NCBI GenBank assembly: GCA_041651255.1
Contig: JBAZJP010000005.1
Location: 24,405-88,404, forward strand
DNA length: 64,000 bases
Source: Sulfuriferula sp.
GTDB lineage: Bacteria > Pseudomonadota > Gammaproteobacteria > Burkholderiales > Sulfuriferulaceae
Reading direction: 5' to 3'
The notes beneath the pieces are model-generated. The model worked only from the letters and a program-made list of their open reading frames with translations. It was not told where the DNA came from and ran no database searches. The position numbers and the translations under genes were made by a program. Positions 26,501 to 51,155 of the stretch are shown one piece after another; the first letter of the stretch is position 1; every line of letters begins with the position of its first letter.

Positions 26501-26816
26501 AGAAAGTATGTGGCGTGATATTGTGATAAATGCATACTTTAGTACAACGTAATTTCTGTATTAAAGGAAGTGCGTATTCTGAGTAACCTGCATAGTGCAA
26601 TATAACTATGTCTTCATCAGTCGGTTTGAGCTCAGTCAGGTCCAATCGCAGGTTTGCTACATCGTCATGACGCCACTGAGAATGTATAGAGGTTGTAAAT
26701 CCCATATCTTTCAGCAAAGTATCCAGAGAGACGACCTGATTTGACACTGCGTCACCATAATCTAGCGCTTCTATGACTTGGAAGATACGTCCCGTAAAAT
26801 TAGTATTGAGTAACAT
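23496..26816 (-). CDS. Three-domain glycosyltransferase GT4-GT2-GT4
   Basis: GT4 (YHNITP, GRVAPNK, HEGFGVPLIEA); GT2 (SIVICTYNR, FIDDDA, FDYFLDESE); GT4 (GGIGT, GRLESRKG, YESFGLVPLEA). Confidence 0.9.
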   Translation of the reverse strand: MLLNTNFTGRIFQVIEALDYGDAVSNQVVSLDTLLKDMGFTTSIHSQWRHDDVANLRLDLTELKPTDEDIVILHYAGYSEYALPLIQKLRCTKVCIYHNITPHTFFRSDTDLYSFCLKGRQQLAEIIRDFHYFWGDSNYNLQELVELGADPQNCSLVPIIVGKQTTNTTTENEIPRELGSWLFLGRVAPNKGQVNLIKLFIKVHADAPSCASKLYIVGNHNQADPYYQEVCQQIEKSGLAEHIILTGKVSDAEVERYLARASVYISLSEHEGFGVPLIEAAHHSLPVVALRNSAIGETMGEGNFLAHFIDEMPPLIRELLTNPIRYKQTIQAQKRNAMRFSRESVNKLLIDALQKILPNPYHFTTVSIVICTYNRSDLLERCLDYLQYQTNQNFEIVVINGPSTDNTDEVLKKYKHRIKTADNQERNLSISRNMGIELSDGDIIAFIDDDALPFDDWVDTLIREFSRRPLTLAALGGPAYLAGSLEFQCQDIGINKFAEAKVNIDSSEIGTNGWERSLIGTNTCFRADIIRKVCGFDEQFDYFLDESELCFRLQSKKHLVGYCPDLFLRHEFAQSHNRTGKYKFNWFTICKNTAYYIAAYSGLKGEELSNYIEQRMYDERIRPLKAGLNASEISKAEYKSYVNAIHSGTKQGLIDSSAFPRTRRLNPSPNTFQVFTTAAPYPLVERDIKRLHICIITKEFPPFVPSGGIGTLYYHLASELLLMGHFVTVVAPGDLEPIHRRGRFAIKYTKLKMVCSDTMNTPGFINNINWSISAFQAIATIHTNHPIDIVESALWDSEALALSLIPTNDRPPLVVRLVTPFPVAARLNGWSVPDYEGELFKTSEQTLIANANAVVPISESIANTLEVEYGICRDARWSKSFCGIAYWPFFDFRLGYADLGEINGKPLTFPNNAKLILFVGRLESRKGVDILIAAANEFLKSDSRAHLLLAGRDIEDWISKAKTIISTELANRVHFLGEVDDATRDKLFNIAYCVVFPSRYESFGLVPLEAFVHGVPVIASRAGAIPEVVYDEKCGLLFEPENAKSLADCVTRLLEEPELRKQLSDGAKTQIQYFSSRNSAIRAVKLYSELLNNNKHLLSREPFNVK

Positions 26817-27476
26817 TTAGGCATGCTCTTTATGTTTAAGGTGGAGTAGCAGTTGTTGAGCCTCTTGAGACTTAGTAAGCAGCTCAGCAAGTTGATCAAT
26901 CACTTCATTTGCAGCCCCTTCTTTGAGGTCGATAGTTTGCGACAAAATTGATTGTGATTTTGTAATTACATGGGGTGCAATGAGTTCTTCAGATGCGGCA
27001 TGTCTTGGGCTAAACGCTGTCGTGGTTCTGTCATGTCGCATAAATTGTAGCAAACTGGCATGTATATGTTGAGCATGTGTATCAATCGCAGTTGGCAGTG
27101 CTTGTATGGCTGTTTTCAGTTCTATTGTGCCGTCTATAACGCGACTGAGTTCCGCAGTATGTTTATGTATCAGCCGTTCACTACGCTGTTGGCGTGTAAA
27201 AATTCCCCAAAACCAATGGTTGGCTCGCTTTTCATCCTTGATTAAATTGGATAGACCATTGATTTTTTTTCGTGGGTTGGCTTCGGCTGAGGTCGCTAGT
27301 TGCACGATGATTGCGGCCTTGCCATGACCCATGTGGAGTCTCCCCAAATAATAGTTCATACCAGCTGGGTCGGGATCCCGTTCCAGTAGCAGGCGGTATG
27401 CGGCGGTGATGAATTCCCGTTCGTCGTATATGAAAAGTTCTGCGATATGTTGTATGTAAGGCATGGTGATTATCAC
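26817..27476 (-). CDS. DUF4214-like module plus helical tail, no catalytic domain
   Basis: FITAAYRLLLERDPDPAGMNYYLGRL...IIVQLATSAE matches the module in 38236..41103 and 48192..51155. Confidence 0.7.
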   Translation of the reverse strand: MIITMPYIQHIAELFIYDEREFITAAYRLLLERDPDPAGMNYYLGRLHMGHGKAAIIVQLATSAEANPRKKINGLSNLIKDEKRANHWFWGIFTRQQRSERLIHKHTAELSRVIDGTIELKTAIQALPTAIDTHAQHIHASLLQFMRHDRTTTAFSPRHAASEELIAPHVITKSQSILSQTIDLKEGAANEVIDQLAELLTKSQEAQQLLLHLKHKEHA

Positions 27477-28735
27477 TATAAATTAGGAATTTTTTGGGGG
27501 GCTACACCCACTGATGGGGATGGATAACATAATGCTTGTGTTAATGCCAAGCAAGATACTTGCCATGTGAGCTCGGTTGGTTGTTGTATGTATTTATTTT
27601 CGCTTTTGAATCGCTTTAGCCATTGAGGGAGGAGAGTGGTTAGGTCATGATCGGATGCCGAGTGGAAAAAACTAACGTTTTTACTGGCAATTTCACGGAA
27701 CACAGATAGGTCACGAGCCAGGACAGGCTTGCGGAAATAAGCGGCTTCTATCAATGGTAAGCCGTAACCTTCGCCTTTGGAGGTGATGAGCACGCCCAGG
27801 CATTGCCGGTAGAGGGCGCTCAGCAGATTATCCTCCACATCATTTAACCAAATCAACCGTTTGCCTGTTTCTGCATGGGTTCGCAGGCGGTGGCTGAGTT
27901 CTTCTATGTCCCATCCTTGCTTGCCAACGATGATTAGGCGGGTTGAATCGCCTGTTGCCCAGAGTGATTCGAACGCATCAAGTGCATCATCATAGCCTTT
28001 GCGTGGCTCGATGGTGCCGACCATAAGAATAAAGTCGTGCTCTGCTAAGTGTCGCGGTAATGGTGTAATGGACGCGTTGTTATCCAGCTCTGCACCTAAA
28101 GGAATTGTGGCGCAGGGTATTTCAGTTGTGGATAGCTGATAGTGCTTTTGCATCCAGTCGTGAAAATCGGCCTGTACAGTGCGTGAGATCGCAATGGTGT
28201 TATCGGCGAGTAGGGCAATGGCACGCAACCAGCGATGGAAATTCCGGCTGGCTCTGGGGGTGAACCATTCCGGATGCAATACGGGCAAAAGGTCATAGAT
28301 CACAATGCTGATACGTGTACCTTGCAGCTTCCAGTTCCATAGCTGTTCAAGGTGATGTGGAATCAGGTGCGCAGAAAGATCCAGCCCTAAAAAAATATCA
28401 CCTGCATTAACCTGAATCGGTAAGGTCGGGGCTGTCGCTGGTTGTTGTAAAAAATCAGTGGGCAGATAGCGGTAAGGCTGGGTACGCGAGGCCGCAACAG
28501 GACAGATGCGGTAACCCGCTGGCGGAGCTGCGAGTAATGCCTTGTACAGGTTGCGTACTACACGTTGGATACCGGTTTTTGCGTCGATTTTTGCAATGGC
28601 AGAAACGTCGATTAATAATTGTTTTTCTGCAGTGTCATGCGAGGTGTCGTGGGTTACGTGTGTTAGTCTTTTGCGCCAGAATGACACTGGTAAATACGTG
28701 AGTGCAATATGGTGGAGTAATCGTAGTGCGCGCAT
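27476..28735 (-). CDS. GT4 glycosyltransferase (WbpX/WbdA C-domain-like)
   Basis: LLIDVS..DAKTGIQRVV, YDLLP, VGTIEPRKG, EGYGLPLIEA. Confidence 0.88.
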   Translation of the reverse strand: MRALRLLHHIALTYLPVSFWRKRLTHVTHDTSHDTAEKQLLIDVSAIAKIDAKTGIQRVVRNLYKALLAAPPAGYRICPVAASRTQPYRYLPTDFLQQPATAPTLPIQVNAGDIFLGLDLSAHLIPHHLEQLWNWKLQGTRISIVIYDLLPVLHPEWFTPRASRNFHRWLRAIALLADNTIAISRTVQADFHDWMQKHYQLSTTEIPCATIPLGAELDNNASITPLPRHLAEHDFILMVGTIEPRKGYDDALDAFESLWATGDSTRLIIVGKQGWDIEELSHRLRTHAETGKRLIWLNDVEDNLLSALYRQCLGVLITSKGEGYGLPLIEAAYFRKPVLARDLSVFREIASKNVSFFHSASDHDLTTLLPQWLKRFKSENKYIQQPTELTWQVSCLALTQALCYPSPSVGVAPQKIPNL

Positions 28736-29397
28736 TATCCAATCTCAGCGGCGTGCTCGTTGTAATACACGAATGCTTCATCAAGATCATCAAACGCAGT
28801 CATTTTTCCTTTAACTAAGACTGCTGCGCGCTGGCAGTGTTGGCGGATGTAGTTTGGGTCGTGGGATACGATGATCATGGCACGATCGTTGCGTTTTTCG
28901 AATAGCTCAACACGGCATTTTTCGTGGAAACGATGATCGCCCACGGCAATGATTTCATCGATTAAAAAGCAATCAAATTCCACCACCATGGAGATAGCGA
29001 ACGCCAGTCGTGCTCGCATCCCTGATGAGTACGTTTTAACGGGTTCTCTAAGATATTTTCCTAGTTCAGAGAACTCTTGTACGAAAGGGATCTTGTCTTC
29101 GGTCGAGGTGTCGTAAATGCGGCAAATGAAGCGTAAATTATCCAGACCAGTCAGGCTGCCTTGAAATGCACCACCAAACGCCAACGGCCAGGATACACTC
29201 ATTCCTCGGGTGATACTGCCGCTAGTTGGGCGCTCAGCCCCGCTGATGAGGCGGATGAGCGTGGATTTGCCCGAGCCATTGCGCCCGAGTATACCAACTT
29301 TCTCACCTGGGGCTATTTGCAGGTTGATATTATCCAGTACAGTGCTGACACCGCTGCGAGTATGGTAGCGTTTGACGAGGTTGCTAATTTGTATCAT
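28735..29397 (-). CDS. wzt: Capsule ABC transporter ATPase KpsT/Wzt, short form without C-terminal carbohydrate-binding domain
   Basis: GRNGSGKST Walker A, YSSGM signature, FLIDE Walker B, VSH. Preferred start ATG 29397 (MIQISNLV), in ATGA overlap with the wzm stop; the ORF track starts at 29457. Confidence 0.93.
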
Positions 29398-30185
29398 TCG
29401 GGTATGACCGTTCTGGATATGATACGAACTTGCGAAAGCCCCAGCAAGGTAAGGCATAAATTGATAATCGCCATGTAACTCATGTCGTAATGCGCGTGGA
29501 CCATAGACCCGAAATAGCCTTCGCGCAGTATCTCGACACCATGCACCATAGGCAACAATAGGACGAATTTTTGCCCTGTGGTGGGTAGCCAGTCAACCAT
29601 GAATGCGGCACCAGATAGTGGAAATAAGAGATATGAGGCAGGGTGCCAGAGTTTCTCAATAATTTCGCTGCGCTCACTTAAAGCGCCTATCCACAATGCA
29701 AGTGCCGAGCCAAACCAGGCTAGCATGAACCAGCCAAACATGATTTTGAGTATATCTTCGGGTGGTTTAATCCAGCCTATCGAGGTGAAGACTATCCCTA
29801 ACATAATAAATGAAGCGGTAGTGCCAGCAATTTCAAGGATTAGTCGAGAAGCAAAAATGTCGATCACTTTGACATGACGGTGATACATCAAGGCCAGGTT
29901 AGGTTCAATGGCCTTGCTGCAGCGGTTAGGCATGTTGCGCCATAGTAAAACAGATGAGTAACCGGTGAGCGCAAATGCGGCAATAGGGATGTTGGTAAAG
30001 TGATGTCCGCCAGCCATAGTCCACAGCACGGTGACACCCAAGGTAAAGAGCATGGGTTCAACGAATAGCCATAAAAAACCAATATTATGACGACCATAGC
30101 GGGTGATGACTTCGCGCATCAATAGCGCGCCAATGACGCGGAATTGTATTTGTAAGGATCGGCGCAAGCTGGGTGTTGTATTCAT
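29394..30185 (-). CDS. wzm: Capsule ABC transporter permease KpsM/Wzm
   Basis: [26 protein letters not shown], multiple TM segments, P-x-VHG-x-E-x2-R. Confidence 0.93.
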
Positions 30186-37610: not shown

Positions 37611-38239
37611 TGCTCTTTACGGAAAATTCTGGCCGGATGGCCGAGTGCTGTAGTTGAAGAAGGGATGTCGGAAATCACGACCCCGCCGGCGCCTATCATT
37701 GTGTTGTCACCAATCGTTATATCCGGAATCACAGTGGTGCTGATACCGAGAAATGCTCTCTGACCCACGGTTACATTGCCGGCAAGTGCGCACTGCGGTG
37801 CTATGTGAGCACAGAACCCAATGCGGCAATCGTGGTCGACAGTAGCACCTGTGTTGATGATCGCCAGGTCTTCGATATGGCTTTCAGCGTTGATTATTGC
37901 GCCACTCATGATTGCTATGCCTTTGCCTAGCACGACGGACGGGGAAATGATTGCAAATGGGCTGATGGCATTGACAAGTTCGAATCCGAGGGTTACAGCG
38001 TGGGCAGTTGCGCGCTCGCGGATGCGGTTTGACCCGATGGCAGGAAAGAGCAGGCTATTTCCGGCTTCACGCAGCTTAATTAGCTGTTCATCTCCCTGTA
38101 GAACGGGTACGTCCAGACATGTAGCAGGGCTGTCTTCGCCACCGACACAGTAGTTAACCTGATAACCCGCTGCGCGTAGTATCTCAATGACGACTTTGGC
38201 ATGACCGCCCCCACCTAAAACGACCACGGAATTTTTCAT
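37607..38239 (-). CDS. Sugar N-acetyltransferase, PerB/PglD/NeuD family (left-handed beta-helix)
   Basis: LGGGGHAKV, AIG-x-N-x2-R, hexapeptide repeats, VDHDC, G-x-PAR. Preferred start ATG 38239 with AGGAGG RBS and ATGA overlap. Confidence 0.88.
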   Translation of the reverse strand: MKNSVVVLGGGGHAKVVIEILRAAGYQVNYCVGGEDSPATCLDVPVLQGDEQLIKLREAGNSLLFPAIGSNRIRERATAHAVTLGFELVNAISPFAIISPSVVLGKGIAIMSGAIINAESHIEDLAIINTGATVDHDCRIGFCAHIAPQCALAGNVTVGQRAFLGISTTVIPDITIGDNTMIGAGGVVISDIPSSTTALGHPARIFRKEQ

Positions 38240-41103
38240 TGCGAACCTCCTGCTTTTGTCCAAACTGGCGATTGCCGCCGCGCAAAAAACAGATTTATTG
38301 ATTCGATGGCGTCCAGCTCATCAATGGAAATGTTGCGTAATGCGCCGCTATCAGGGTGAATTGCTTGGTATTCAAGACCGAGTTGGCTAAATCGCTCCAG
38401 CCAGTCTTGCGATGTGATATTGGTCCGTTTCAAGTGGGAGTTGCCAAATTCTGCAATGATAGCGATGTCTTTATTCTGCTTTATCAGTGATTCAGCCCCA
38501 GCCAATACTTCAAGCTCGGCACCTTCTGCATCAATTTTAATGAGGTGCGCAAATGGCGCGTTTGCCATGATTTGATCTATTGTTGTGGTGCGCACGGTAA
38601 CTGGTTCGATGTCTATTCTGGATGCTTCGTCGAGCGGGAAGAGAGAATGGTGGCCGCTGGTTGCACCTAGATACAAGGTGCGTTCACGCTGTTCGTCAGA
38701 TGCGGCAATGCAGTGTATTTCAACCATATTTTTAAAACCATTCATCCAGATGGTTTTTTCCAGTAGGCGTGCTGTCGGAGGGTAAGGTTCGAATGCAATC
38801 ACACGTCCTTGTCCACGCATGCTCTTCGCAGCCGCAAGGGTGTGCATCCCAACATTTGCACCCACATCAATAAAGATGTCGCCTGGGCTGAGAATATGCT
38901 GAATCAAATGTCGTGTGCCTGGTTCCAGTTCGCCGCTTTCGATGAGTGCTGCAATCAGGGCATGATCTTCACTAGCGCATAAAACATAGCCGACACTGGT
39001 TCTTACCATGAGGGCATCCGTTCCGAAAGGAACGGCTACACGGCGAGCAGCAGTCAGCCCATAAAGCTCAATGCGACCAAGCTGAGGATTCAGTTGATCT
39101 AATTGTAGGTGCAGCTGTTCCTGAGCAGTTATGGACTCAGCCAGTTGAGCCAGGATGGTGGTGTTATCTTCTTTCAGTGTTTGCGGTAGCGAAACATTCA
39201 AGTATTCAGCGACTTGCTGTACACGGTAGGTCATGTCAGCCTGGATGTTGGATAGTGTCGCTAACATCTCGCTTGTATGCTTATGCACGTCGTTGGATAC
39301 GGTTGAGCTTTCTTTGCTGATTAAGGCTGCAGTGTTAACTGCATGTTGGCCTAGTTGCAGGCGCAACTGTTCCTGAGCAGTTATGGACTCAGCCAGTTGA
39401 GCCAGGATGGTGGTGTTATCTTCCTTCAGTGTTTGCGGAAGCGAAACATTCAAGTATTCAGCGACCTGTTGTACACGGTTGGTCATGTCAGCCTGGATGT
39501 TGGATAGTGTCGCTAACATCTCGTTTGTAAGCTTATGCACGTCGTTGGATACGGTAGAACTTTCTTTACTGATTAAAGCTGCAGTGTTAACTGCATGTTG
39601 ACTTAGTTGTAGGCGTAGCTGTTCCTGAGCTTGATCTCCCAATATAAGCCGTGCCAGGATTGTCGTTTTGATCTCGTCAATGGATTGTGGTAAAGATGTA
39701 TTTAGTTGCTCAGCAGCTTCCTGTGCCTGGCGGGTTAGGTCTGCTTGCGTCTTAATTAGCGCAGTTTGTACGCTATGAGAAAAGTTGTTTATTTCGTGCA
39801 ACAAGGTTGTATGCTCTTGGCCAATCAAGGATGCTGTCTCATAGGCGAGCTTGTCTAGTTGTTGATGAAGCCGCTTTTGTGCTGTTTCAGCTTTCAAGAG
39901 AGACGCTAATATTGTTGCTTTGATATCCTCAGCTGTTTGTGGCAACGATGCACTTAATTGCGAAGTCGCTTCTTGCACCAGGCGGGCAAGGTTCATTTGA
40001 GTTTTAGTTAGCGCTGTTTGCGCATCGTTTGCAACTTTGCTAATTCTGTAAGATAAGGCTGCGTGCTCTTGATCAATCAAAGTCGTTGTTTCTTTGCTGA
40101 GCTTGTCGACTTGTTGCGCCAGAGTCAATGTTGCGGTTTGCCCATCTTTGAGTTCTGCTCTGATTGTCGCGACATCGGATTGTTGTTGTGAATTAATTCG
40201 TTGTATTGATAGCTCTATGCCTTGCAAGCGTTGACGGCTATCTGCGACTGCTGAGGGTAGTGTAAGTGTATCGATTGCCCATTTGATAAAGGGCATATTT
40301 CTTAGTTTGTGTAGCCAGGATGCCGCTGTTAACCCCGCCACTCGATTCGAGATAACTCTATCCCTGTTGGATGTTTTGATCTCGGAGAGGATGGAGAGTT
40401 TGCTGCGGCCATTTCTTAGTTGTGTCAAATAATGTTCGAAGTTCTGTTGGTCTGGCAAGCGACCGAGAACCGATTGAAATGCATGATTAATAAACTGGAC
40501 ATCATCATAAACAAGTAATTCGTTTAGATGGACGCGTGAAATTGCGCAGATTAATTCAATTAACCACCCAAGAACAGGCACGCGTCGATATTTTAGTAGC
40601 AGGTATGTCCAGCGCAGTTTTTTATACCACTTTTTGGCAATTTCAGTTTCTCCAGAGGCCGCTAGCTGTCCCAGAATTTGGATGCGAGAGATGCCGTCAT
40701 TTAATCGTTGATTAAAATAATGCAATCCAGTCGGGTCTGGTGTTCTATCTAGTATTTCTAAGTAAGCAGCGTTGATAAATTTTTCACCGTCTAATGACAA
40801 TAGGCGCGGTAGTCTGATGTGTATTTGCGAAGTGGGGTCAAACAATGGGCTGGTTGATGTCTGCTCGTGACTCAAGTCATGAGTTGTAATTTTTTCGGGT
40901 TGTGATTGGGGTTCGCAAGGGGAGGCGTTTTCTTTAACTTGAGGATTGTGCGGGCAACTAAGTGCGTTGATGGCTGGGCTGCGCATCTGATGATTGAGAA
41001 TATCTCCCATGCTTGGATCATGTATCGTCATCTTTTTTGGTCGGGATGTGCGATTGTGAATGCTGTCGTTATTCATTTTGTCAAGGGTTGAGGGATGTTT
41101 CAC
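38236..41103 (-). CDS. FkbM-family methyltransferase with two N-terminal DUF4214-like modules and a 4x84-aa helical repeat stalk
   Basis: C-terminal IDVGANVG, AFEP, IKIDAEGAELEVL-x-G. Two F-x3-(Y/F)-x3-L-x-R-x-PD modules. Start codon uncertain. Confidence 0.85.
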   Translation of the reverse strand: MKHPSTLDKMNNDSIHNRTSRPKKMTIHDPSMGDILNHQMRSPAINALSCPHNPQVKENASPCEPQSQPEKITTHDLSHEQTSTSPLFDPTSQIHIRLPRLLSLDGEKFINAAYLEILDRTPDPTGLHYFNQRLNDGISRIQILGQLAASGETEIAKKWYKKLRWTYLLLKYRRVPVLGWLIELICAISRVHLNELLVYDDVQFINHAFQSVLGRLPDQQNFEHYLTQLRNGRSKLSILSEIKTSNRDRVISNRVAGLTAASWLHKLRNMPFIKWAIDTLTLPSAVADSRQRLQGIELSIQRINSQQQSDVATIRAELKDGQTATLTLAQQVDKLSKETTTLIDQEHAALSYRISKVANDAQTALTKTQMNLARLVQEATSQLSASLPQTAEDIKATILASLLKAETAQKRLHQQLDKLAYETASLIGQEHTTLLHEINNFSHSVQTALIKTQADLTRQAQEAAEQLNTSLPQSIDEIKTTILARLILGDQAQEQLRLQLSQHAVNTAALISKESSTVSNDVHKLTNEMLATLSNIQADMTNRVQQVAEYLNVSLPQTLKEDNTTILAQLAESITAQEQLRLQLGQHAVNTAALISKESSTVSNDVHKHTSEMLATLSNIQADMTYRVQQVAEYLNVSLPQTLKEDNTTILAQLAESITAQEQLHLQLDQLNPQLGRIELYGLTAARRVAVPFGTDALMVRTSVGYVLCASEDHALIAALIESGELEPGTRHLIQHILSPGDIFIDVGANVGMHTLAAAKSMRGQGRVIAFEPYPPTARLLEKTIWMNGFKNMVEIHCIAASDEQRERTLYLGATSGHHSLFPLDEASRIDIEPVTVRTTTIDQIMANAPFAHLIKIDAEGAELEVLAGAESLIKQNKDIAIIAEFGNSHLKRTNITSQDWLERFSQLGLEYQAIHPDSGALRNISIDELDAIESINLFFARRQSPVWTKAGGSQ
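39121..40128. repeat. Intragenic tandem repeat, 4 x 252 bp (84 aa)
   Basis: ctgagcagttatggactcagccag occurs at 39121 and 39373 (252 bp apart). Two near-identical units are preceded in the protein by two diverged units of exactly 84 aa, each containing SLPQ and ending AQ. Confidence 0.92.
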
Positions 41104-44459: not shown

Positions 44460-44627
44460 TACGGAATTTATACTGTATTTCTGATTATTTCATTTTGTTA
44501 CAGTTTGTAACCATGTAATATCCCGACTTCATGTAAGTAACTTGTAATGTAATAGGGCGTTACTTACCTTAATAATTCGTAGATATTGCTCCTAATCGGT
44601 TGGGCAAAACTTATTGGAATGTGGTTC

Positions 44628-47600
44628 ATGGTCAGAATATCAGTACTCCTCACCTCATATAATCATGCCAAATACTTGCGAGAAGCTATCGACAGTGTTT
44701 TGGCGCAGACATTTGCGGATTTTGAATTATTGATTGTGGATGATGGCTCAACCGATGAATCTTGGGAGATTATTGGTAGTTATGCTGACCCTAGGGTACG
44801 TGGGTTTAGAACTGGTGAGCAAAACATTACTACAGCGGTAAACCAATTAATCGCGCAACAGGCTGTAGGTGAATTTATCGCTATTTTTCATTCAGATGAC
44901 GTTTGGCGAACAGATAAGTTGGCTCAGCAAGTTACTTATCTGGACCAGCACACTGAATGTGGCGCGGTGTTTACACAAACAATTGCCTTAGATGAGGGTG
45001 GTCAGCCACTGTCTGATGGTGCCGCTGGGATTGCTAGCATCTTTGCACAGCCTAATCGTTCTCGTCAGCAATGGCTTAGATATTTTTTCTACCAAATGAA
45101 TGCGTTATGTCATCCCAGTGTGTTGATACGCAAACAGTGTTATCTCGACATAGGTTTTTATCGCGAAACCATGTGGGCGCTGGATGATTTTGATTTGTGG
45201 GTCAGGTTGTGTTTGCGTTACGAAATTCACGTGCTTGAAGATGCGCTGACTTGCTTCCGCGTACGTGCGGATCATGGAAATGTCAGCGGCAATAAAATTG
45301 GAACGCATGTACGTACTGCGACGGAATTCTTTTTCGTGCTGCGCCACTATTTGACCATAGATAGTTTTGAAGAGCTGGTACATATCTTCCCCGAGGCACA
45401 GGTTTATTATCGTGCCGAGGGTTGCGAGCCGCATTTTGTGCTGGCGATGATGGCGTTAGCACAACAGGCTTTCCCGCAAACGCAATTATTCGGTCTGTCT
45501 CTGTTGTTCGATTTGCTGGAGGATGCGGAATCTGCCCGTCGTATTGATGTGCTCTATGGGTTTAAACCTGCTGACTTTCACGCGCTGAAAGTACAGCATG
45601 ATGTGTTTCGTGTTAAGCAATTGCATGAGGCAGAGCAGAAGATTGCGATGTTGGAAACTGCTTCACCTGCCGCACCAGCCATACATTCAGTGGCGTCGTT
45701 AAATGATGTTGTGCGCTTGTGGGGTGATGATCCACGGCTTTTCAGCCAAGTCGGTGTGCGCACGATCTGGGGGGATTTGGAAACAACAGGTCAAGCTGGT
45801 TATCTGATGTATGGGCCGTATTTACCTTTTGCTAAAGGGCATTATCAGGTTGTCGTGCGTGGTTCGGTAGGGCGAGCTGGGGCGCGATTTGATGTGACAG
45901 CCGTTCATGGTAGTCAAACTATAGTCGCGATGGACATAGTGGAAGCTGATGAGACGGGATGCCTGGTTCGCATACTCATAGAATTGACAGACGATTGTAC
46001 TGATCTGGAATGCCGTATTAGCGTTAGTGCAGAATGCAATTTGAGAGTGGCTATGCTGGAAATCACACCATTGCAGTTTGCTGATACGGCAATGACAGGT
46101 ACTCGACCCACACAATTACCCGTTGATATATCAGTATGCCGCCCGTTGCGAATTATGCTGATGGGTAATTGTCAGTCATTAGTTTTGGCCACTTTGATAG
46201 GTATGATGGCAAGTGAGGTAGTTGAAGCAAAAGGTTGGAAGTGGACGCAGGAATTTCGCCAGCGACTGTTAAATAGCGATGCTGAATTGATGGATTGGCT
46301 ATTAAATAGTGACCTGATTTTATTGCACAAAGAAGGTGGTTTTTATCAATGGTTTGAACAGCACTATCCCAATTTGCGATTTAAGGTTCGTTATATACCA
46401 AGTATTTCTTTTGGTGCGTGGCATCCTGATTTGGATCTTATTTCTATTGGGCAAGAGGAGGCTTGTGGGTATGTTGAAGGGTCGATGGGCGCTTGTCAGT
46501 CTACGCTAGCTTTTTATGGTTGGAAACAGGGATGGGATGTCGAACAGACCTTGAATTTGTTTGCGACTGATATTTATGAGCTGATGGGTTATTTTGATGC
46601 TTATGCTGGTTGGAAAGAATTTTTGGTAGAAGAAGGGGTGAGAGGCAACCTTCCTTTGGGGCATCTGATCGATGAGTGGTCGCGCAGGGGGTGCTGGATG
46701 CACTCCATCTACCATCCTAAGTTATTTGTGTTGGTCGATGTGGCGCGTGAATTAATGCTACGTGAACAGATAATGATTAATACGTCGGTTCAGCCAGAAA
46801 CTCTTATAGAGGATGATTTCCTGAATAGTCCAATTTGGCCCATTTATCCCGAAATTGCCGAGCATTATGGTTTGACGGGTGATTATGTGTTTCGCTCAAA
46901 TGAGCGTGAACAAACATTGCGCGAGTTTGTGGTAGATTCTTTTGCCCGCTTTGATCAGTATGGTGGCGCAACGCTGGGTAGCGATATGTATGCTGCAGAG
47001 CAGCTCAAGGTTTTGCATGAGCGTTTGACATTATACCTTGCCCATCGTAAGCCTGTGGATGAGCGCATCATGCCAAAGGCATTGCCTGTGGCAGCCTTAT
47101 CCAACCCCTATCGCAACTTGCCGGATTATCATTTTTGGCGGCGTGCAGTTGAGCAGGTGCCGGTGCAACAACTTGATCCAGTGGTGCGTGCGCGCGTGCA
47201 TTTGCGGGCTGACAGCAAAGTGGCGACTGCGGGCAGTTGTTTCGCACAGCATATTTCCCGCGCTTTGCGGCAACATGGATACAATAATTACATCACTGAA
47301 ACTGGTATAGGACTGAGTGCAGCTGAAGCTGAACAACGCAACTATGGTGTATATTCAGCGCGCTACGGCAATGTTTACACTGCGCGTCAACTGGTACAGT
47401 TGTTTGATCGTGCCTATGGCGACTACGCACCGAGTGAACAAGCTTGGCTGCGTGAAGATGGTCGATTTGTGGACCCCTTCCGGCCACAAATCGAACCTGA
47501 TGGATTTGCACAGATTGAAGCGCTGGAACAATCGCGTGCAGAACAATTTTCTGCCGTACGCGAACTGTTTGAAAATCTTGATGTGTTTGTATTTACACTA

Positions 47601-48164
47601 GGGCTAACAGAAGCCTGGCGTAACCGCAGCGATGGCGCCGTTTTTCCACTTGCGCCCGGCGTTGTTGCTGGTGCAATGAATCCGCGCGAGCATGAGTTTA
47701 TCAACTTCAATACGCAGGATGTGATTGGCGATTTACAGGCCTTTATCAACCGTTTATTACGGATCAATCCAGCTGCAAAAATGATACTGACCGTGTCACC
47801 CGTGCCACTGATTGCGACGTATGAAGATCAGCATGTGTTGGTGTCGAATACTTACAGCAAATCGGTATTGCGTGCGGCGGCCGAAGAAATCTGCCGTCGT
47901 AACGCCATGTGCGAATACTTCCCCGCCTACGAGATGATTACAGGGCATTATAATCATGGCGCATGGTTTGAAGGTGACTTGCGTTCAGTGCGAGCTGAAG
48001 GGATTGAACATGTCATGCGTACATTCTTTAAGCATTATGCGGCAGATGAGGCAGGTATGGCTGATGGAGAAGGTAAGGCAAGTGCAGCTCGAGTTGTATT
48101 GAATTATGCTGCTGTAGCAGGTGTCGTGTGCGAAGAAGCTGCGTTGGATCAGCCGTCAGTCTAG
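44628..48164 (+). CDS. Multidomain fusion: GT2 + beta-sandwich + WcbI-like domain + GSCFA (SGNH-like) domain
   Basis: GT2: SVLLTSYNH, VDDGSTD, DFDLW. Module GYLMYGPY. WcbI-like: GNCQ, IPSI-x-F-x-AWHPD, HS-x-YHP. GSCFA: TAGSCFAQ, FTLGLTEAW, LTVSPVP, YFPAYE. Preferred start ATG 44628; ORF track uses 44586. Confidence 0.78.
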   Translation: MVRISVLLTSYNHAKYLREAIDSVLAQTFADFELLIVDDGSTDESWEIIGSYADPRVRGFRTGEQNITTAVNQLIAQQAVGEFIAIFHSDDVWRTDKLAQQVTYLDQHTECGAVFTQTIALDEGGQPLSDGAAGIASIFAQPNRSRQQWLRYFFYQMNALCHPSVLIRKQCYLDIGFYRETMWALDDFDLWVRLCLRYEIHVLEDALTCFRVRADHGNVSGNKIGTHVRTATEFFFVLRHYLTIDSFEELVHIFPEAQVYYRAEGCEPHFVLAMMALAQQAFPQTQLFGLSLLFDLLEDAESARRIDVLYGFKPADFHALKVQHDVFRVKQLHEAEQKIAMLETASPAAPAIHSVASLNDVVRLWGDDPRLFSQVGVRTIWGDLETTGQAGYLMYGPYLPFAKGHYQVVVRGSVGRAGARFDVTAVHGSQTIVAMDIVEADETGCLVRILIELTDDCTDLECRISVSAECNLRVAMLEITPLQFADTAMTGTRPTQLPVDISVCRPLRIMLMGNCQSLVLATLIGMMASEVVEAKGWKWTQEFRQRLLNSDAELMDWLLNSDLILLHKEGGFYQWFEQHYPNLRFKVRYIPSISFGAWHPDLDLISIGQEEACGYVEGSMGACQSTLAFYGWKQGWDVEQTLNLFATDIYELMGYFDAYAGWKEFLVEEGVRGNLPLGHLIDEWSRRGCWMHSIYHPKLFVLVDVARELMLREQIMINTSVQPETLIEDDFLNSPIWPIYPEIAEHYGLTGDYVFRSNEREQTLREFVVDSFARFDQYGGATLGSDMYAAEQLKVLHERLTLYLAHRKPVDERIMPKALPVAALSNPYRNLPDYHFWRRAVEQVPVQQLDPVVRARVHLRADSKVATAGSCFAQHISRALRQHGYNNYITETGIGLSAAEAEQRNYGVYSARYGNVYTARQLVQLFDRAYGDYAPSEQAWLREDGRFVDPFRPQIEPDGFAQIEALEQSRAEQFSAVRELFENLDVFVFTLGLTEAWRNRSDGAVFPLAPGVVAGAMNPREHEFINFNTQDVIGDLQAFINRLLRINPAAKMILTVSPVPLIATYEDQHVLVSNTYSKSVLRAAAEEICRRNAMCEYFPAYEMITGHYNHGAWFEGDLRSVRAEGIEHVMRTFFKHYAADEAGMADGEGKASAARVVLNYAAVAGVVCEEAALDQPSV

Positions 48165-48191: not shown

Positions 48192-51155
48192 ATGAAAAAT
48201 GAGAGTGGTTCAATGAATCAAATAACGATCCCAACACTGGAGAATGCCGCTGGTTTGCTGTCAGTTGCAGAGCTGCTGTCATATCATGATGAGTTTTTTA
48301 TACGTTTGGCATTTTTGGTTTTGCTGGGACGAGCGGCTGATCCTGATGGTTTGAACCATTATTTAGGCCGCTTGCGTAATGGTATCGATAAAGCACAGAT
48401 ACTGGCAGAGATTAAATTTTCACCAGAGGGGGAGGGCTATGCGACAGCGCTTGCTGGACTGGATGCAGTGCTTAAGCCGTATGCTTGGTTGAAATCACCT
48501 ATTTTAAATAAGCTGACCCGCATACAAAAGCGGTTGGGTGGCAACGATGCGATTTTGTGCCACTTACGTGCCTTGGATAATCAACTGTTGCGACAGCAAG
48601 ATGATTTTGGTTATGAGTTACGGCAAGTGGATGAGCGCTTGGCCCAGCAATTGGCAGCACAACAGGCAGCCTCAACGAATTTGGAGGGACAGCTTTCCAG
48701 TCGGTTGGATGCTTTAGCGCAGCAGTTGAGTGAGCAGCAGGTGGCGCTGGCCCAGCAATTGGCAGCACAACAGGCAGCCTCAACGAATTTGGAGGGACAG
48801 CTTTCCAGTCGGTTGGATGCTTTAGCGCAGCAGTTGAGTGAGCAGCAGGTGGCGCTGGCCCAGCAATTGGCAGTACAACAGAGTGCCTCGACGAATTTGG
48901 AGGGGCAGCTTTCCAGTCGGCTGGATGCTTTAGCGCAGCAGTTGAGTGAGCAGCAGGTGGCGCTGGCCCAGCAATTGGCAGCACAACAGGCTGCCTCGAC
49001 GAATTTGGAGGGGCAGCTTTCCAGTCGGTTGGATGCTTTAGCGCAGCAGTTGAGTGAGCCGCAAATGGCGCTGGTGCAGCAAATGACAGTGCAACAGGCT
49101 GCCACAGCGAATTTTGAGGGTTGGGTTTCCAGTCGGCTGGAAGTTTTGATGCAGCGCATGGGCGAGCAGCAGTCAACTTTGGGGCAATTACACTCGTTGA
49201 ATGAGGTCAAGCTGGATGAACTTAAGGAATATAGGGTTGCAGTTCGCCCATGGGTTGGTGAATTGCCCGCTTTGGCTGTGGCACCCAAAGTGTCAGTTGT
49301 CATCGTGCAGTACCAGCACTCGGTTGTGACTAGCCGCTGTATTCGTTCCTTATTCCGTTACACCGATATGTATGATGTTGAAATTGTGGTGGTAGATAAT
49401 GGCAGTTCACCAGAACATGTTGAGGCATTGGTGCAAGAATTTGGTTCGTCTATCAGGATGCTGCAATTGGGAGTCAATCGCTATTTCGGCGAAGGTAACA
49501 ATATAGGGGTTGAAGCGACGCGTGGCGAATTTGTCGTGTTGATCAATAATGACGTGGCAGTTACGCAGGGCTGGTTGAGTGCGTTGTTGCCTCATTTGCA
49601 TGGCAATATTGGCGTTGTGGCGCCGACGTTCCTCTACCCGGATGGTCGCGTGCAGGAATGCGGCGCGACGATAAATGAGCAGGGACGATCTATTCAGAAA
49701 CTGCAGTTTGGTAATCAAAGTGAGTTACCGCTGCTTCCATTTGAGTGTGATTATGTTTCTGCTGCCCTGATAGTTATGCGTAAACGGGATTATCTCGCTG
49801 TGGGCGGTTTTTCACCGGAATATGAACCAGCATATTACGAAGACGTGGATTTGTGTTTCAAGCTGGCTGCGCGGGGGTTGCGTACGGTCTGCGTACCTAA
49901 AGTACGTGTGTATCATGTGGGAAATGCAACTTCAAGTGGCTTTGAATTTGGAATGGAACTTCCGATGCTGATCGATTCTGCCAAGAATGTTCTGCTGTCG
50001 CGCTGGCAGCCGTTTTTGAGTAGTAGAAATGTAGATGGTTTGCGATCAGGGGCACGTGACAGCATGCATTTGCCCGATAGTGCGGCGACTATAACGATGG
50101 CGTCTCCTGCTGCCTTATTCTATTTGCCGGCCGTTGAGTTTGATGCTAACACCCGATACGCTTTAAACATTGCCCGTGCGATGGCGACGACGCATCAGCT
50201 GGTTTTCGCTTGCCCTGCAGCCACTAGTCGTTTGCGTTTATTGCAGATTGCGCGTCACTGGGGGCTGGGACTAGCGAATTTGCAATGCGTGGTCTGGGGT
50301 GATGCTGTCACTGATCAGGTATGGGATAAATGTTTTGTGTTCGGTAATACGGTGTTTCCACCTATCGCTGCACCTGTTGCGCATAGCATATATGCGTGTG
50401 CATTCCCGGTTGATGCTCACCATCCTGATATAACTAATCAGTCGTTAATGGATGGATATCAATATTGGTGCCAAAGTGTATGGGTCAAAAATAATCTTTG
50501 TGATGCGGGTTGGGTAGCGCCTGAACGGGTGACTGTCTTGCCAGAAGCAGTAAGTCAATTTGCGGCTCAAGCAAACAAGGAGCATGTCATTGTATCAGTG
50601 GCGAAATTCACGCTTAATGGCCAGCAGCTTCTGATAATTGAGGCGTTCAAACGTTTGGTTGCTTCAGGTGGTTTTGACGGCTGGCGCTTGATATTGGTTG
50701 GCACGCGTTCTCCACAACCTGATGATCTGGCTTACTTGAGCCACTGTATGGCACAAGCGGAAGGCTGGGCTATTGAGTTTGTGTTCGATGATGCAATAGA
50801 TATATTGCGTGATGTTTATGCGCGTGCAGCAGTGTATTGGCACGGGGCAGGGTTGGGTGTGGATGTGGTCAGCACTCCGGCGCTGGCTGATAATGCCGGG
50901 GTGGAAGCCTTAGAGGCAGCCAGCGCTGGTTGCCATGTTTTTATACCTAATGCTGGATCGGTGTTTGAATGGTTGCGCGGTGCACCAACTGGTGTGTATG
51001 CGTGTGCTAGTGTTGATGAGCTGGTAAATCTTATGCTCGATGTTAATCAGGATTTGGGTTGGGAGGTCGCTGCGGAACATGATGCAGCGTGGTTGCAAGA
51101 TCGGTCTTTGCAAAAATTTACCGAGTCAGTTCAGAATAAGCTTCAGTTGCTGTGA
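48192..51155 (+). CDS. DUF4214-like module + 36-aa repeat stalk + GT2 + GT4-like glycosyltransferase
   Basis: LLGRAADPDGLNHYLGRL; repeats; GT2 VVDNGS, GNN-x-G, NND, YYEDVDLC; C-terminal GT4-like domain with GVEALEAASAG. Confidence 0.85.
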   Translation: MKNESGSMNQITIPTLENAAGLLSVAELLSYHDEFFIRLAFLVLLGRAADPDGLNHYLGRLRNGIDKAQILAEIKFSPEGEGYATALAGLDAVLKPYAWLKSPILNKLTRIQKRLGGNDAILCHLRALDNQLLRQQDDFGYELRQVDERLAQQLAAQQAASTNLEGQLSSRLDALAQQLSEQQVALAQQLAAQQAASTNLEGQLSSRLDALAQQLSEQQVALAQQLAVQQSASTNLEGQLSSRLDALAQQLSEQQVALAQQLAAQQAASTNLEGQLSSRLDALAQQLSEPQMALVQQMTVQQAATANFEGWVSSRLEVLMQRMGEQQSTLGQLHSLNEVKLDELKEYRVAVRPWVGELPALAVAPKVSVVIVQYQHSVVTSRCIRSLFRYTDMYDVEIVVVDNGSSPEHVEALVQEFGSSIRMLQLGVNRYFGEGNNIGVEATRGEFVVLINNDVAVTQGWLSALLPHLHGNIGVVAPTFLYPDGRVQECGATINEQGRSIQKLQFGNQSELPLLPFECDYVSAALIVMRKRDYLAVGGFSPEYEPAYYEDVDLCFKLAARGLRTVCVPKVRVYHVGNATSSGFEFGMELPMLIDSAKNVLLSRWQPFLSSRNVDGLRSGARDSMHLPDSAATITMASPAALFYLPAVEFDANTRYALNIARAMATTHQLVFACPAATSRLRLLQIARHWGLGLANLQCVVWGDAVTDQVWDKCFVFGNTVFPPIAAPVAHSIYACAFPVDAHHPDITNQSLMDGYQYWCQSVWVKNNLCDAGWVAPERVTVLPEAVSQFAAQANKEHVIVSVAKFTLNGQQLLIIEAFKRLVASGGFDGWRLILVGTRSPQPDDLAYLSHCMAQAEGWAIEFVFDDAIDILRDVYARAAVYWHGAGLGVDVVSTPALADNAGVEALEAASAGCHVFIPNAGSVFEWLRGAPTGVYACASVDELVNLMLDVNQDLGWEVAAEHDAAWLQDRSLQKFTESVQNKLQLL
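48639..49178. repeat. Intragenic tandem repeat, 4 near-identical + 1 diverged 108-bp (36-aa) units
   Basis: Unit LAQQLAAQQAASTNLEGQLSSRLDALAQQLSEQQVA; ggcccagcaattggcag at 48641 and 48749. Units are contiguous, with no spacers. Confidence 0.95.

Follow-up and report, generated by a model that had tools for sequence, protein, structure and literature searches.

A putative spacer arm built from 36-residue repeats on a GT2-GT4 enzyme in a capsule locus of Sulfuriferula sp.

A 108-bp tandem repeat in the 64,000-nucleotide stretch of Sulfuriferula sp. DNA analysed here (the window) is predicted to code for the middle of a continuous α-helical stalk of ~230 residues, which would link a DUF4214 domain to the GT2 and GT4 modules of a 987-aa protein (Table 1). 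The hydrophobic seam of this stalk has a period of 3.60 residues, such that one 36-aa unit corresponds to exactly ten helical turns; adding or removing a unit would thus leave both the seam and the orientation of the enzyme head intact. On balance, the stalk is best read as a spacer arm in a ruler complex whose polymerase and terminator are split onto separate proteins, i.e., in a complex for chain extension and termination.

Table 1 Features of the repeat-bearing protein and of its locus (positions in the window)
Feature	Position	Strand	Evidence or remark
Poly_export/SLBB, KpsD-like exporter	11360-12550		
GT4-GT2-GT4 triple glycosyltransferase, second multi-GT polymerase	23496-26816		219-aa DUF4214 protein directly upstream
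Third DUF4214 protein, 219 aa (DUF4214 - basic 'HWFWGIF' helix - short stalk)	26817-27476	-	without enzyme
ABC ATPase	28735-29457		
ABC-2 permease	29394-30185		
2 x DUF4214 - stalk of 84-aa repeats - FkbM methyltransferase	38236-41103	-	
GT2-WcbI-GSCFA fusion gene	44586-48164	+	upstream
987-aa ORF (DUF4214 - helical stalk - GT2 - GT4-like GT-B)	48192-51155	+	profile matches, AF2
DUF4214 domain, aa 31-79	48282-48428	+	Pfam PF13946
Basic Trp/Tyr-containing segment, aa 91-120	48462-48551	+	KPYAWLKSPILNKLTRIQKRLGG, net charge +4
Helical stalk, aa 121-350	48552-49241	+	AF2 helices, periodicity test
Units 1-4, 108-bp / 36-aa repeat	48636-49067	+	consensus ALAQQLAAQQAASTNLEGQLSSRLDALAQQLSEQQV
Diverged unit 5	49068-49175	+	ALVQQMTVQQAATANFEGWVSSRLEVLMQRMGEQQS; 70-74 % nt identity to units 1-4
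Junction motif 'KEYRVAVRP', stalk/GT2	49224-49250	+	conserved
GT2 (GT-A) domain, aa 365-580	49284-49931	+	PF00535
GT4-like GT-B domain, aa ~640-987	50109-51152	+	Pfam, AF2

The array was delineated by Tandem Repeats Finder at 48635-49141 (period 108, 4.7 copies, 92 % matches, no indels, score 816). In the frame of the ORF, units 1-4 start at 48636, 48744, 48852 and 48960, and the complete array (48636-49175) lies in frame inside the 987-aa protein. Units 1-4 share 90-96 % DNA identity, with units 1 and 2 differing solely in their first 6 nt; unit 5 is ~72 % identical to the others at the DNA level and shares 19-20 of 36 residues with them. The description in the first-pass annotation of four almost identical units plus a diverged one, rich in Q, L and A and proline-free except at the end of unit 4, is thus confirmed: residues 149-328 consist of Q (23 %), A (18 %), L (17 %) and S (11 %), P290 at the end of unit 4 is the single proline, and lysine is absent from the repeats. 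Only three long in-frame tandem repeats are present in the 2.9-Mb genome, including the window array and the stalk of the neighbouring FkbM protein. Two minus-strand ORFs overlying the repeat (48499-49176 and 48611-49303) were rejected as by-products of its freedom from stop codons.

The ORF starts 27 nt past the stop codon of the upstream GT2-WcbI-GSCFA gene and encodes a protein without signal peptide or transmembrane segment; the most hydrophobic 19-residue window (Kyte-Doolittle, 1.58) falls on the first strand of the GT2 domain. DUF4214 is a widespread domain of unknown function. Its N-terminal match (30.3 bits versus a gathering threshold of 23.2; 34.5 bits in the whole-genome scan) is set in a well-folded helical domain (aa ~12-101, AF2 pLDDT ~90), for which Foldseek places phycobilisome linker domains on top, albeit weakly (E 0.6-1, probability up to 0.87). 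The following basic segment (aa 91-120) is conserved in the family, has a moderate hydrophobic moment (0.46) and is packed onto the DUF4214 domain in the AF2 model; it possibly serves as peripheral membrane or partner contact.

Directly C-terminal of the stalk, behind a junction motif with the family consensus K/R-E/A-Y-x-x-A-I/V-K/R-P, the two predicted polymerase modules carry catalytic residues that are invariant across 77 homologs. The GT2 domain (63.6 bits versus a gathering threshold of 23.3) retrieves GT-A structures as top matches in the fold search and contains N452-N453-D454 and E550-D551..D553 as invariant residues. The C-terminal domain scores below the Pfam threshold for Glycos_transf_1 (PF00534, GT4; 21-22 bits versus 26.4), reaches 40.8 bits in ortholog P0002, and is modelled with a GT-B fold (pLDDT >90); in its EX7E motif E908 is invariant, while the first Glu is replaced by Asp900 in this clade. 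The domain matches therefore uphold the earlier assignment as GT2-GT4 enzyme. Judged from these sequence features, the protein most likely represents one of the dual glycosyltransferases by which ABC-transporter-dependent glycan pathways polymerise disaccharide repeats. PDB searches by sequence and by fold returned only generic GT-A enzymes (ppGalNAc-transferases, chondroitin polymerase) and no related solved ruler.

AF2 predicts three stalk helices (121-229, 236-322 and 332-350), which together with the composition bears out the expected helical, nearly proline-free nature of the repeat region. The stalk carries a net charge of -8, and its hydrophobic stripe is narrow; ~70 % of its residues are Q, A, L or S, and charged residues are unusually few for a coiled coil. 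If extended, the 180 aa of the array span ~27 nm (0.15 nm per residue), as originally estimated, and the full helix (121-350) ~34 nm. In a phase test of Leu/Ile/Val/Met/Phe/Trp positions, the seam follows a period of 3.60 residues and not of 3.5, and none of 500 shuffles reached the observed periodicity. The Kyte-Doolittle Fourier spectrum of the exact repeats contains only harmonics of 36, so that the periodicity is deduced from the phase test, diverged orthologs included. In the window protein the signal stays coherent for more than 200 residues, and it recurs independently in P0002, P0003 and P0004; other stalks of the family have periods of 3.58-3.66. The initial interpretation of the 36-aa period as five heptads plus one residue with a regular discontinuity has consequently to be replaced: with ten turns per unit no discontinuity arises, and 3.60 (18/5), which would correspond to a heptad plus a hendecad, applies uniformly along the whole stalk. 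A membrane-lying amphipathic helix of the apolipoprotein type would also display a 3.6-3.67 period and is unlikely here, considering the net charge, the absence of lysine and the narrow stripe.

Most likely, the stalk helices associate in parallel into a homo-oligomeric bundle with almost no twist, the oligomeric state being presumed. AF2 modelling covered the monomer, in which the stalk is folded back on itself at a midpoint break (residues 230-235, pLDDT 56-81); this fold-back may have arisen in the modelling or may correspond to a true hairpin. A genuine antiparallel hairpin would halve the reach and bring DUF4214 beside GT2 as regulatory or substrate-binding lid. The modelled pairing of 121-229 with 236-322 agrees with such an arrangement, and a 3.6 periodicity is compatible with untwisted packing of helices of any kind. 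However, the break falls on the exact stalk midpoint, in one of four equivalent 'SASTNL' sites and at the lowest pLDDT, as is typical of homo-oligomeric coiled coils modelled as monomers, and gain or loss of a single unit would shift the hairpin register; the hairpin is accordingly regarded as very unlikely.

Two assemblies of the same strain disagree in their number of units. In the MEGAHIT assembly ENA ERZ27247363 (contig k141_65662) the encoded protein is the same but shorter by exactly 108 aa, i.e., it has two instead of five units. In both assemblies the gene starts at contig coordinate 72596, preceded by 2992 bp of 100 % identical sequence. The shorter form has a chimeric unit 1/unit 4 junction ('ggagggacag...(45 nt)...gagccgcaaatg') inside 45 nt that units 1 and 4 share without a difference, the position expected both for a de Bruijn collapse and for a real recombination. 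The three missing units may reflect either assembler collapse or a real deletion variant. Ongoing instability, as postulated in the first-pass annotation, would have this three-unit difference as its one indication. Conversely, the five-unit array itself could be mis-assembled, in which case the true gene would have two units (879 aa), without a long near-identical array or recent duplication. Besides the matching contig coordinate and flanks of the shorter form, its distance from DUF4214 to GT2 (177 aa) would fit that of fused relatives (~183 aa). We nevertheless consider such mis-assembly unlikely: units 3 and 4 carry unit-specific substitutions, and the inter-unit junction joining cagcaggtg to gcgctggcccag is missing from the two-unit form, so that the respective k-mers must come from reads; furthermore, the N-terminal lengths of the closest orthologs match the five-unit form. 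No exact match to the unit junction was present in the JGI metagenome contigs scanned, and a degenerate scan with the KEYRVAVRP-coding motif yielded four matches, two of which were inspected and proved to be chance matches in unrelated genes. The case shows for short-read metagenome bins that repeat copy number can vary with the assembler.

The N-terminal region comprises 364 aa in the window protein as compared to 360 and 346 aa in the two closest orthologs (55-58 % identity), both of which bear diverged 36-aa units. By this sequence comparison the 36-aa array is ancestral, with a total stalk length conserved in orthologs, and units 1-4 were therefore homogenised or re-amplified inside the old array without net expansion. 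Recent expansion, as proposed in the first-pass annotation on account of the near DNA identity, thus holds in so far as units 1-4 are homogenised or re-amplified; it does not hold for the array as such, which is old and of conserved length, and units 1-4, the pair of units 1 and 2 apart, already differ from each other by 6-10 %. Genomes of the same genus and order contain no ortholog, only generic GT2 matches (best full relative 34 % identical), which assigns the gene to a variable locus.

In the wider family, DUF4214 and GT2 are separated by ~45 to ~285 aa, which indicates that catalysis does not require a long stalk. This range, from near-absent stalks (P0005, P0016) to ~285 aa, and the many homologs that are bare GT2-GT4 modules of ~650 aa would also suit a stalk that merely dimerises or trimerises and tethers the enzyme, its length measuring nothing and its repeats reflecting neutral turnover in a low-complexity helix; in Helicobacter pylori fucosyltransferases, dimerisation and stability as such also depend on the heptad region (PMC2583950). 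Such a pure oligomerisation scaffold is nonetheless rather unlikely, in view of the near-equal stalk length of three orthologs whose units have diverged to ~55 % identity. In addition, the phase-preserving unit and the recurrent fusion to terminator-type methyltransferases fit a spacer of defined geometry. In more distant, fused relatives (P0006, P0009, P0010, P0011 and P0012), an FkbM methyltransferase and a coiled coil precede DUF4214-stalk-GT2-GT4. A further one, the 1878-aa ORF of L012, is organised as FkbM - repeat coiled coil - DUF4214x2 - stalk - GT2-GT4, with the stalk containing its own 270-bp repeat.

The gene belongs to an ABC-transporter-dependent capsule locus (Kps-like type), which includes two Capsule_synth genes; one ABC transporter only is encoded within the window. 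All four DUF4214 domains of the genome (39-44 % identity to each other) are encoded in this locus, spread over three stalk proteins: (i) the 987-aa protein, (ii) the FkbM methyltransferase protein, the stalk of which is encoded by a 252-bp repeat and has a periodicity of 3.66, and (iii) the 219-aa protein. The DUF4214 modules of the FkbM protein are 41-44 % identical to that of the 987-aa protein. The FkbM protein is a probable partner in trans and a candidate chain terminator. For the spacer-arm reading this would mean that the fused design of the relatives is split here into DUF4214x2-stalk-FkbM and DUF4214-stalk-GT2-GT4, and we infer that the DUF4214 modules and following basic helices of both proteins could form a common hub; the choice of membrane-facing end and any effect on chain length are likewise conjectural. 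The FkbM protein belongs to a divergently transcribed cassette, and the polymer it serves may be another one. On the 15.6-kb contig that carries ortholog P0002, no FkbM gene is visible; the GT2-WcbI-GSCFA gene is a near neighbour of this ortholog, too. Besides the separate cassette of the FkbM gene and the lack of a visible one near P0002, several observations stand against the spacer-arm reading: the window polypeptide itself lacks a terminator, with only DUF4214 ahead of the stalk; charged residues are few, the distance from DUF4214 to GT2 is variable in the family, the AF2 stalk folds back, and the copy number is uncertain.

The first-pass annotation had suggested that the stalk defines where a block or branch is added, an idea that may hold but is not favoured by the present data. 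A specific form of it, resembling the H. pylori FutA/FutB 'enzymatic ruler', would have the DUF4214 end with its basic helix as membrane or complex anchor and the GT2-GT4 head 27-34 nm away, acting only on chains grown to that length and starting a second block or a distal decoration. Compatible with this are the second multi-GT polymerase next to a single ABC transporter in the window, and the basic, aromatic-rich post-DUF4214 segment. Two-block hybrid O-antigens that need a coiled-coil protein are known from Escherichia coli O101/O162 (PMC13168486), and FutA/FutB fucosylate chains at a length set by heptad number (PMC2583950). Against it, DUF4214 occupies a mid-polypeptide position between methyltransferase arm and GT arm in the fused relatives and not a free end, and the amphipathicity of the basic segment is only moderate, the segment being modelled as packed on DUF4214; this form of the idea is therefore doubtful.

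Returning to the split polymerase-terminator complex, one may speculate, at low probability, about a two-armed caliper that is tunable by its repeats. The DUF4214 hub, the fold of which would be akin to that of the phycobilisome linker docking domain, would join a polymerase arm of 36-aa units to a methyl-capping arm of 84-aa units, and the geometry would set capsule length or the start of a second block. Both arms would change length in quanta of whole turns (10 and 23, respectively), and gain or loss of units, possibly exemplified by the three-unit difference between the assemblies, would generate sub-populations with different capsule lengths.

How ABC-transporter-dependent (group 2-like) capsules control chain length is far less well understood than the corresponding control in O-antigens. 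The present locus would offer a natural dissection of a WbbB/ORF6-type machine, with modules that are fused in relatives split onto separate proteins and each arm composed of tandem units that span a whole number of helical turns. Should the stalk act as a measuring device, this is a directly testable system relating unit number to chain length, and DUF4214 gains a candidate role as assembly hub; should it not, the array amounts to a common oligomerisation stalk whose repeats turn over.

Among known systems, the coiled-coil protein acts as membrane-associated scaffold and ruler, and polymerase GT modules reside on the same polypeptide in Klebsiella pneumoniae O12 and O7; in every characterised ruler the terminator occupies the distal end (PMC11231755). 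As described there, WbbB (K. pneumoniae O12/Raoultella terrigena; Williams et al. 2017 cited therein) and ORF6 of K. pneumoniae O7 combine terminator, coiled coil and polymerase GT modules in a single polypeptide, the coiled coil setting chain length by separating terminator from polymerase (PMC11231755). Like the window protein, they belong to an ABC-transporter-dependent pathway and have a long helical spacer followed by two C-terminal GT modules; their order methyltransferase - coiled coil - GTs is exactly that of P0006-P0012 and L012. In contrast, the window polypeptide has no terminator and only DUF4214 at its distal end, its GT families differ (GT2 and GT4 versus GT102/GT103 or 2 x GT2), its stalk consists of 36-aa tandem repeats with 3.6 periodicity, and its locus is of the capsule (Kps-like) and not of the O-antigen type.

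In the WbdD-WbdA system (E. coli O9a/K. pneumoniae O3, O5), as outlined in PMC11231755 (citing Hagelueken et al. 2015), separate terminator and polymerase assemble on a coiled-coil scaffold, the length of which sets chain length. The window locus resembles it in having a methyltransferase on its own repeat stalk. Going by that outline, the coiled coil is confined to WbdD and absent from the polymerase WbdA, whereas the polymerase-type enzyme of the window has a stalk of its own; DUF4214 modules, common to both window proteins, do not feature in WbdD, and the domain order of the FkbM protein is reversed relative to WbdD.

The FutA/FutB α1,3/4-fucosyltransferases of H. pylori likewise are glycosyltransferases, not terminators, on tandem-repeat helical stalks of variable length (Nilsson et al. 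2006; PMC2583950), in which changes of copy number by recombination or slippage shift the chain lengths that are modified (PMC2583950). They differ as GT10 decorating enzymes with 7-aa heptads (2-17 copies) located C-terminally beside amphipathic membrane helices, and their copy-number variation within populations is documented, whereas that of the window array is a candidate based on two assemblies. The stalk of the window protein does carry glycosyltransferases rather than a terminator, as had been pointed out initially; the principle itself is not new, given WbbB and O7 ORF6 (PMC11231755) as well as FutA/FutB (PMC2583950). Finally, E. coli O101/O162 with its hybrid PS1-PS2 O-antigen and coiled-coil methyltransferase (PMC13168486) provides a precedent for a second block at the non-reducing end of long chains that requires a coiled-coil protein encoded in the same locus; the system is described without a stalked glycosyltransferase.

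The gene of the window protein (987 aa) belongs to one large ABC-transporter-dependent capsule-type cluster that fills the window and comprises (i) an ABC-2 permease and an ATPase, (ii) a KpsD-like exporter, (iii) two Capsule_synth (KpsS/KpsC-type) genes, and (iv) GDP-sugar genes as well as many GT4s. A GT2-WcbI-GSCFA fusion gene is located 27 nt upstream and lies close to the gene for P0002, one of the two closest orthologs (P0002 and P0003), as well. The domain order agrees with the first-pass annotation in placing the repeat in a GT2-GT4 enzyme. Across 77 homologs, N452-N453-D454 and E550-D551..D553 of the GT2 domain and E908 of the GT4 domain are invariant. Neither a signal peptide nor a membrane span was found in the window protein.

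Features of the window protein, its repeat array and the further DUF4214-stalk proteins
Feature	Position	Strand	Remark
DUF4214 - 36-aa-repeat stalk - GT2-GT4 (window protein)	48192-51155	+	
DUF4214	aa 31-79		window protein
Basic Trp-containing segment	aa 91-120		window protein
Helical stalk	aa 121-350		window protein
KEYRVAVRP junction	between stalk and GT2		window protein; conserved
GT2	aa 365-580		window protein
GT4-like GT-B domain	aa ~640-987		window protein
Units 1-4 of 108-bp repeat	starts 48636, 48744, 48852, 48960	+	in frame of ORF 48192-51155
Unit 5, diverged	49068-49175	+	70-74 % identical to other units
2 x DUF4214 - stalk of 84-aa repeats - FkbM (FkbM protein)	38236-41103	-	
Enzyme-less DUF4214-stalk protein, 219 aa	26817-27476	-	precedes GT4-GT2-GT4 enzyme

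Tandem Repeats Finder detects a single array, spanning 48635-49141 (period 108, 4.7 copies, 92 % matches, 0 indels, score 816), confirming the earlier description of four near-identical 108-bp units followed by a diverged one: units 1-4 share 90-96 % DNA identity, units 1 and 2 differing only within their first six bases and the remaining pairs by 6-11 bases. The array is indeed rich in Q, L and A (Q 23 %, A 18 %, L 17 %, S 11 %) and its sole proline (P290) is found at the end of unit 4. A score this high is reached by just three long in-frame tandem repeats in the 2.9-Mb genome; two are helical stalks of the present locus and the third is an NHL propeller. In the latter (genome contig C24:2354-3814 (+); period 159 bp, 5.4 copies) the repeat forms the NHL-type propeller blades of a protein whose N-terminus resembles that of a type IV prepilin (GFTIVELLIVVTIIGILA). 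Two minus-strand ORFs of 225-230 aa lying wholly over the repeat (48499-49176 and 48611-49303) are not genes, but by-products of the repeat with periodic Pro/Ala- or Cys-rich translations.

The 90 %-identity cluster of the window protein contains three sequences of 987 aa (window), 980 aa (later start) and 879 aa (ENA), the last lacking exactly 108 residues (three units) of the window protein but otherwise equal to it. It originates from MEGAHIT contig k141_65662 of ERZ27247363 (214,102 bp; the window's contig 214,412 bp). Both contigs have the gene start at 72,596 and share identical sequence over the 2,992 bp preceding it; they therefore represent the same strain, almost certainly assembled from the same reads. 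The size gap of 310 bp would fit one internal difference of 324 bp combined with a k-mer-dependent end overhang (324 - 14); the contig end concerned falls in tuf. One unit of the ENA form is a hybrid that begins as unit 1 (5' part) and finishes as unit 4 (3' 'SEPQM' end), with the join lying within a 45-nt stretch identical in both units. That an assembly of the same strain lacks exactly three units could point to mis-assembly of the five-unit array. However, the latter carries unit-specific substitutions and a unit-to-unit junction absent from the two-unit form, which no assembler could invent, so that the long array is present in at least some genomes; moreover, the N-terminal lengths of the orthologs are consistent with five units. 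Mis-assembly is regarded as unlikely, and the short form reflects either de Bruijn collapse or a sub-population with a genuine deletion. The 324-bp difference illustrates how repeat copy number in metagenome bins can vary with the assembler.

The closest homologs by identity of the catalytic part, P0002 (58 %) and P0003 (55 %), share the architecture of the window protein; their N-terminal regions measure 360 and 346 aa, respectively (window protein 364 aa). Their stalks have the motif LExQLxxRLDxLxQQxxEQQxxLAQQLxAQQAAS in common, in strongly diverged units mostly 36 aa apart; a DNA-level tandem repeat was not detectable in P0002. Units 1-4 of the window protein are as similar to P0002 units (20/36) as to their own unit 5 (19-20/36), which together with the similar N-terminal lengths indicates an ancestral array of roughly constant total length. 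The recent expansion proposed in the first-pass annotation therefore does not apply to the array as such, whose 36-aa units and length recur in the orthologs; the recent event is a homogenisation or re-amplification of units 1-4. The duplication behind units 1 and 2 is very recent (102 identical bases), other units being 6-10 % apart.

AlphaFold2 modelling of the window protein (77 sequences, mean pLDDT 83) predicts stalk helices at residues 121-229, 236-322 and 332-350, unbroken through the Gly and S-T-N of each unit. At a lone helix break at the stalk midpoint the modelled monomer folds back (stalk pLDDT only 56-81), which, taken literally, would imply a real helical hairpin; this is considered improbable, and we take the fold-back for a typical by-product of predicting an oligomeric coiled coil from a single chain. 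Leu/Ile/Val/Met/Phe/Trp positions recur coherently every 3.60 residues along the entire stalk (resultant length R = 0.55 vs 0.11 at 3.5; observed value reached by 0 of 500 shuffles). This period persists when the analysis is reduced to a single unit plus unit 5 and the flanks, and was independently obtained for diverged orthologs (P0002 and P0003, 3.60; P0004, 3.58). The seam positions of each unit (2, 6, 9/10, 13, 16, 20, 24, 27, 31, 34/35) divide it into two sub-repeats of 18 residues (heptad plus hendecad in each) rather than into five heptads plus one residue with a skip; the regular discontinuity suggested previously is incompatible with this uniform period. The stalk should accordingly form a uniform, almost untwisted 18/5 bundle, 36 residues representing exactly ten turns. 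At 0.15 nm per residue, the repeats would extend to ~27 nm and the whole helix to ~34 nm. Similar periods were found for the stalks of the FkbM protein (3.66; 84-aa unit, ~23 turns) and the 219-aa protein (3.58), as well as for both stalks of a fused 1,878-aa relative encoded at locus L012 (3.58-3.60; 90-aa unit, 25 turns). Tandem duplications are tolerated in these stalks because whole-turn units keep the seam in phase and the head unrotated.

The GT2-GT4 module is widespread (412 matches among 8,000 candidates scored, frequently named 'O-antigen biosynthesis protein') and occurs bare (~650 aa) or after varied N-terminal modules. Five homologs of 1,600-1,700 aa (P0006, P0009, P0010, P0011, P0012), the most informative about function, are organized as FkbM methyltransferase - ~400-480 aa - DUF4214 - ~183 aa - GT2-GT4. 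The L012 ORF encodes, in this order, an FkbM methyltransferase, a long coiled coil with its own 270-bp repeats, an 'SLIWRLTAPLR' motif, two DUF4214, a basic 'HWFWGMF' helix, a ~140-aa stalk, 'KEYEDAIKP' and GT2-GT4. In WbbB (K. pneumoniae O12) and ORF6 (O7), terminator and polymerase GT modules reside at opposite ends of a coiled-coil ruler, and the complex has this coiled-coil protein as its membrane-associated scaffold (PMC11231755). The fused relatives represent this published design, and their parts are divided among separate proteins in the window. The genome encodes four DUF4214 domains, all of them within the three proteins listed in the table (mutual identity 39-44 %).

DUF4214, a basic 'HWFWGIF' helix and the short stalk make up the entire 219-aa protein, whose gene ends one base ahead of the start of the triple glycosyltransferase (23496-26816, -). 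The protein resembles a stand-alone scaffold serving a WbdA-like polymerase. The motif 'S-L-x-W-R-x-T-A-P-L-R' directly follows coiled-coil segments in many multi-domain methyltransferase/GT2-GT4 proteins (L012:7727-13360 of MAG Burkholderiales GFS_5650, JAYTVA010000144.1; P0006, P0009, P0012, P0013, P0027, P0039, P0060) and could serve these scaffolds as a conserved element for binding membranes or partners; a weaker form follows DUF4214 in the window protein (YAWLKSPILNKL). Six further homologs (P0087, P0110, P0031, P0018, P0093, P0096) carry in their N-terminal 150-200 aa, in place of the helical stalk, 3-5 tandem ~38-aa Pro/Gly-rich repeats ('NPLxHYxxxGxxEGRxPxPxFdxxxYxxxYPD'), a different, uncharacterised module. 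Many relatives (P0005, P0006, P0008, P0016, L012) possess after GT4 an extra C-terminal domain of 140-200 aa ('WSxxExxxRWS...IEF...SF..A'), which could be a carbohydrate-binding module and is absent from the window protein and its closest orthologs.

The N-terminal domain of the window protein is modelled at a pLDDT of about 90, and its best fold matches are phycobilisome linker domains throughout, at weak scores (E 0.6-1, probability up to 0.87). Such domains are protein-docking modules. For a secreted P. putida protein, the DUF4214 part was instead proposed to help bind O-antigen (2026 preprint, bioRxiv 10.64898/2026.09.02.748959). Docking and O-antigen binding would each fit a DUF4214 that forms the hub or sensor end of the stalk.

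We propose that the stalk acts as a rigid, probably homo-oligomeric spacer setting the distance from the polymerase head to a DUF4214 hub. The terminator arm, encoded by another gene, would join at this hub, perhaps along with the 219-aa protein, to form a split WbbB/ORF6-type polymerase-ruler-terminator machine; unequal recombination between units would shift stalk length in ten-turn steps. Taken as a whole, this proposal is considered probable, if only just; it builds on what the analysis shows, namely domain architecture, helicity, periodicity, fused relatives and conserved length, while oligomerisation, hub formation, membrane orientation and any effect on chain length are what we infer in it. 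A stalk serving as scaffold only, without a measuring role, is conceivable though rather unlikely. A role as in FutA/FutB, placing a second block or a decoration, is a still more doubtful reading, although hybrid two-block O-antigens of E. coli O101/O162 depend on a coiled-coil protein (PMC13168486).

The window protein is not a member of the WbdD or WbbB families, since its polypeptide carries no terminator, belongs to other GT families and has another domain set. Three features were not found described in the cited ruler and stalk literature: two stalks on separate proteins that have DUF4214 modules in common, the location in a capsule cluster, and 18/5 whole-turn repeat units. The protein would work most like the polymerase half of WbbB/ORF6, and FutA/FutB of H. 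pylori (PMC2583950) are the nearest analogue for a glycosyltransferase on a variable repeat stalk. The earlier idea that the stalk defines where a block is added is kept alive by the two-block O-antigens of E. coli O101/O162.
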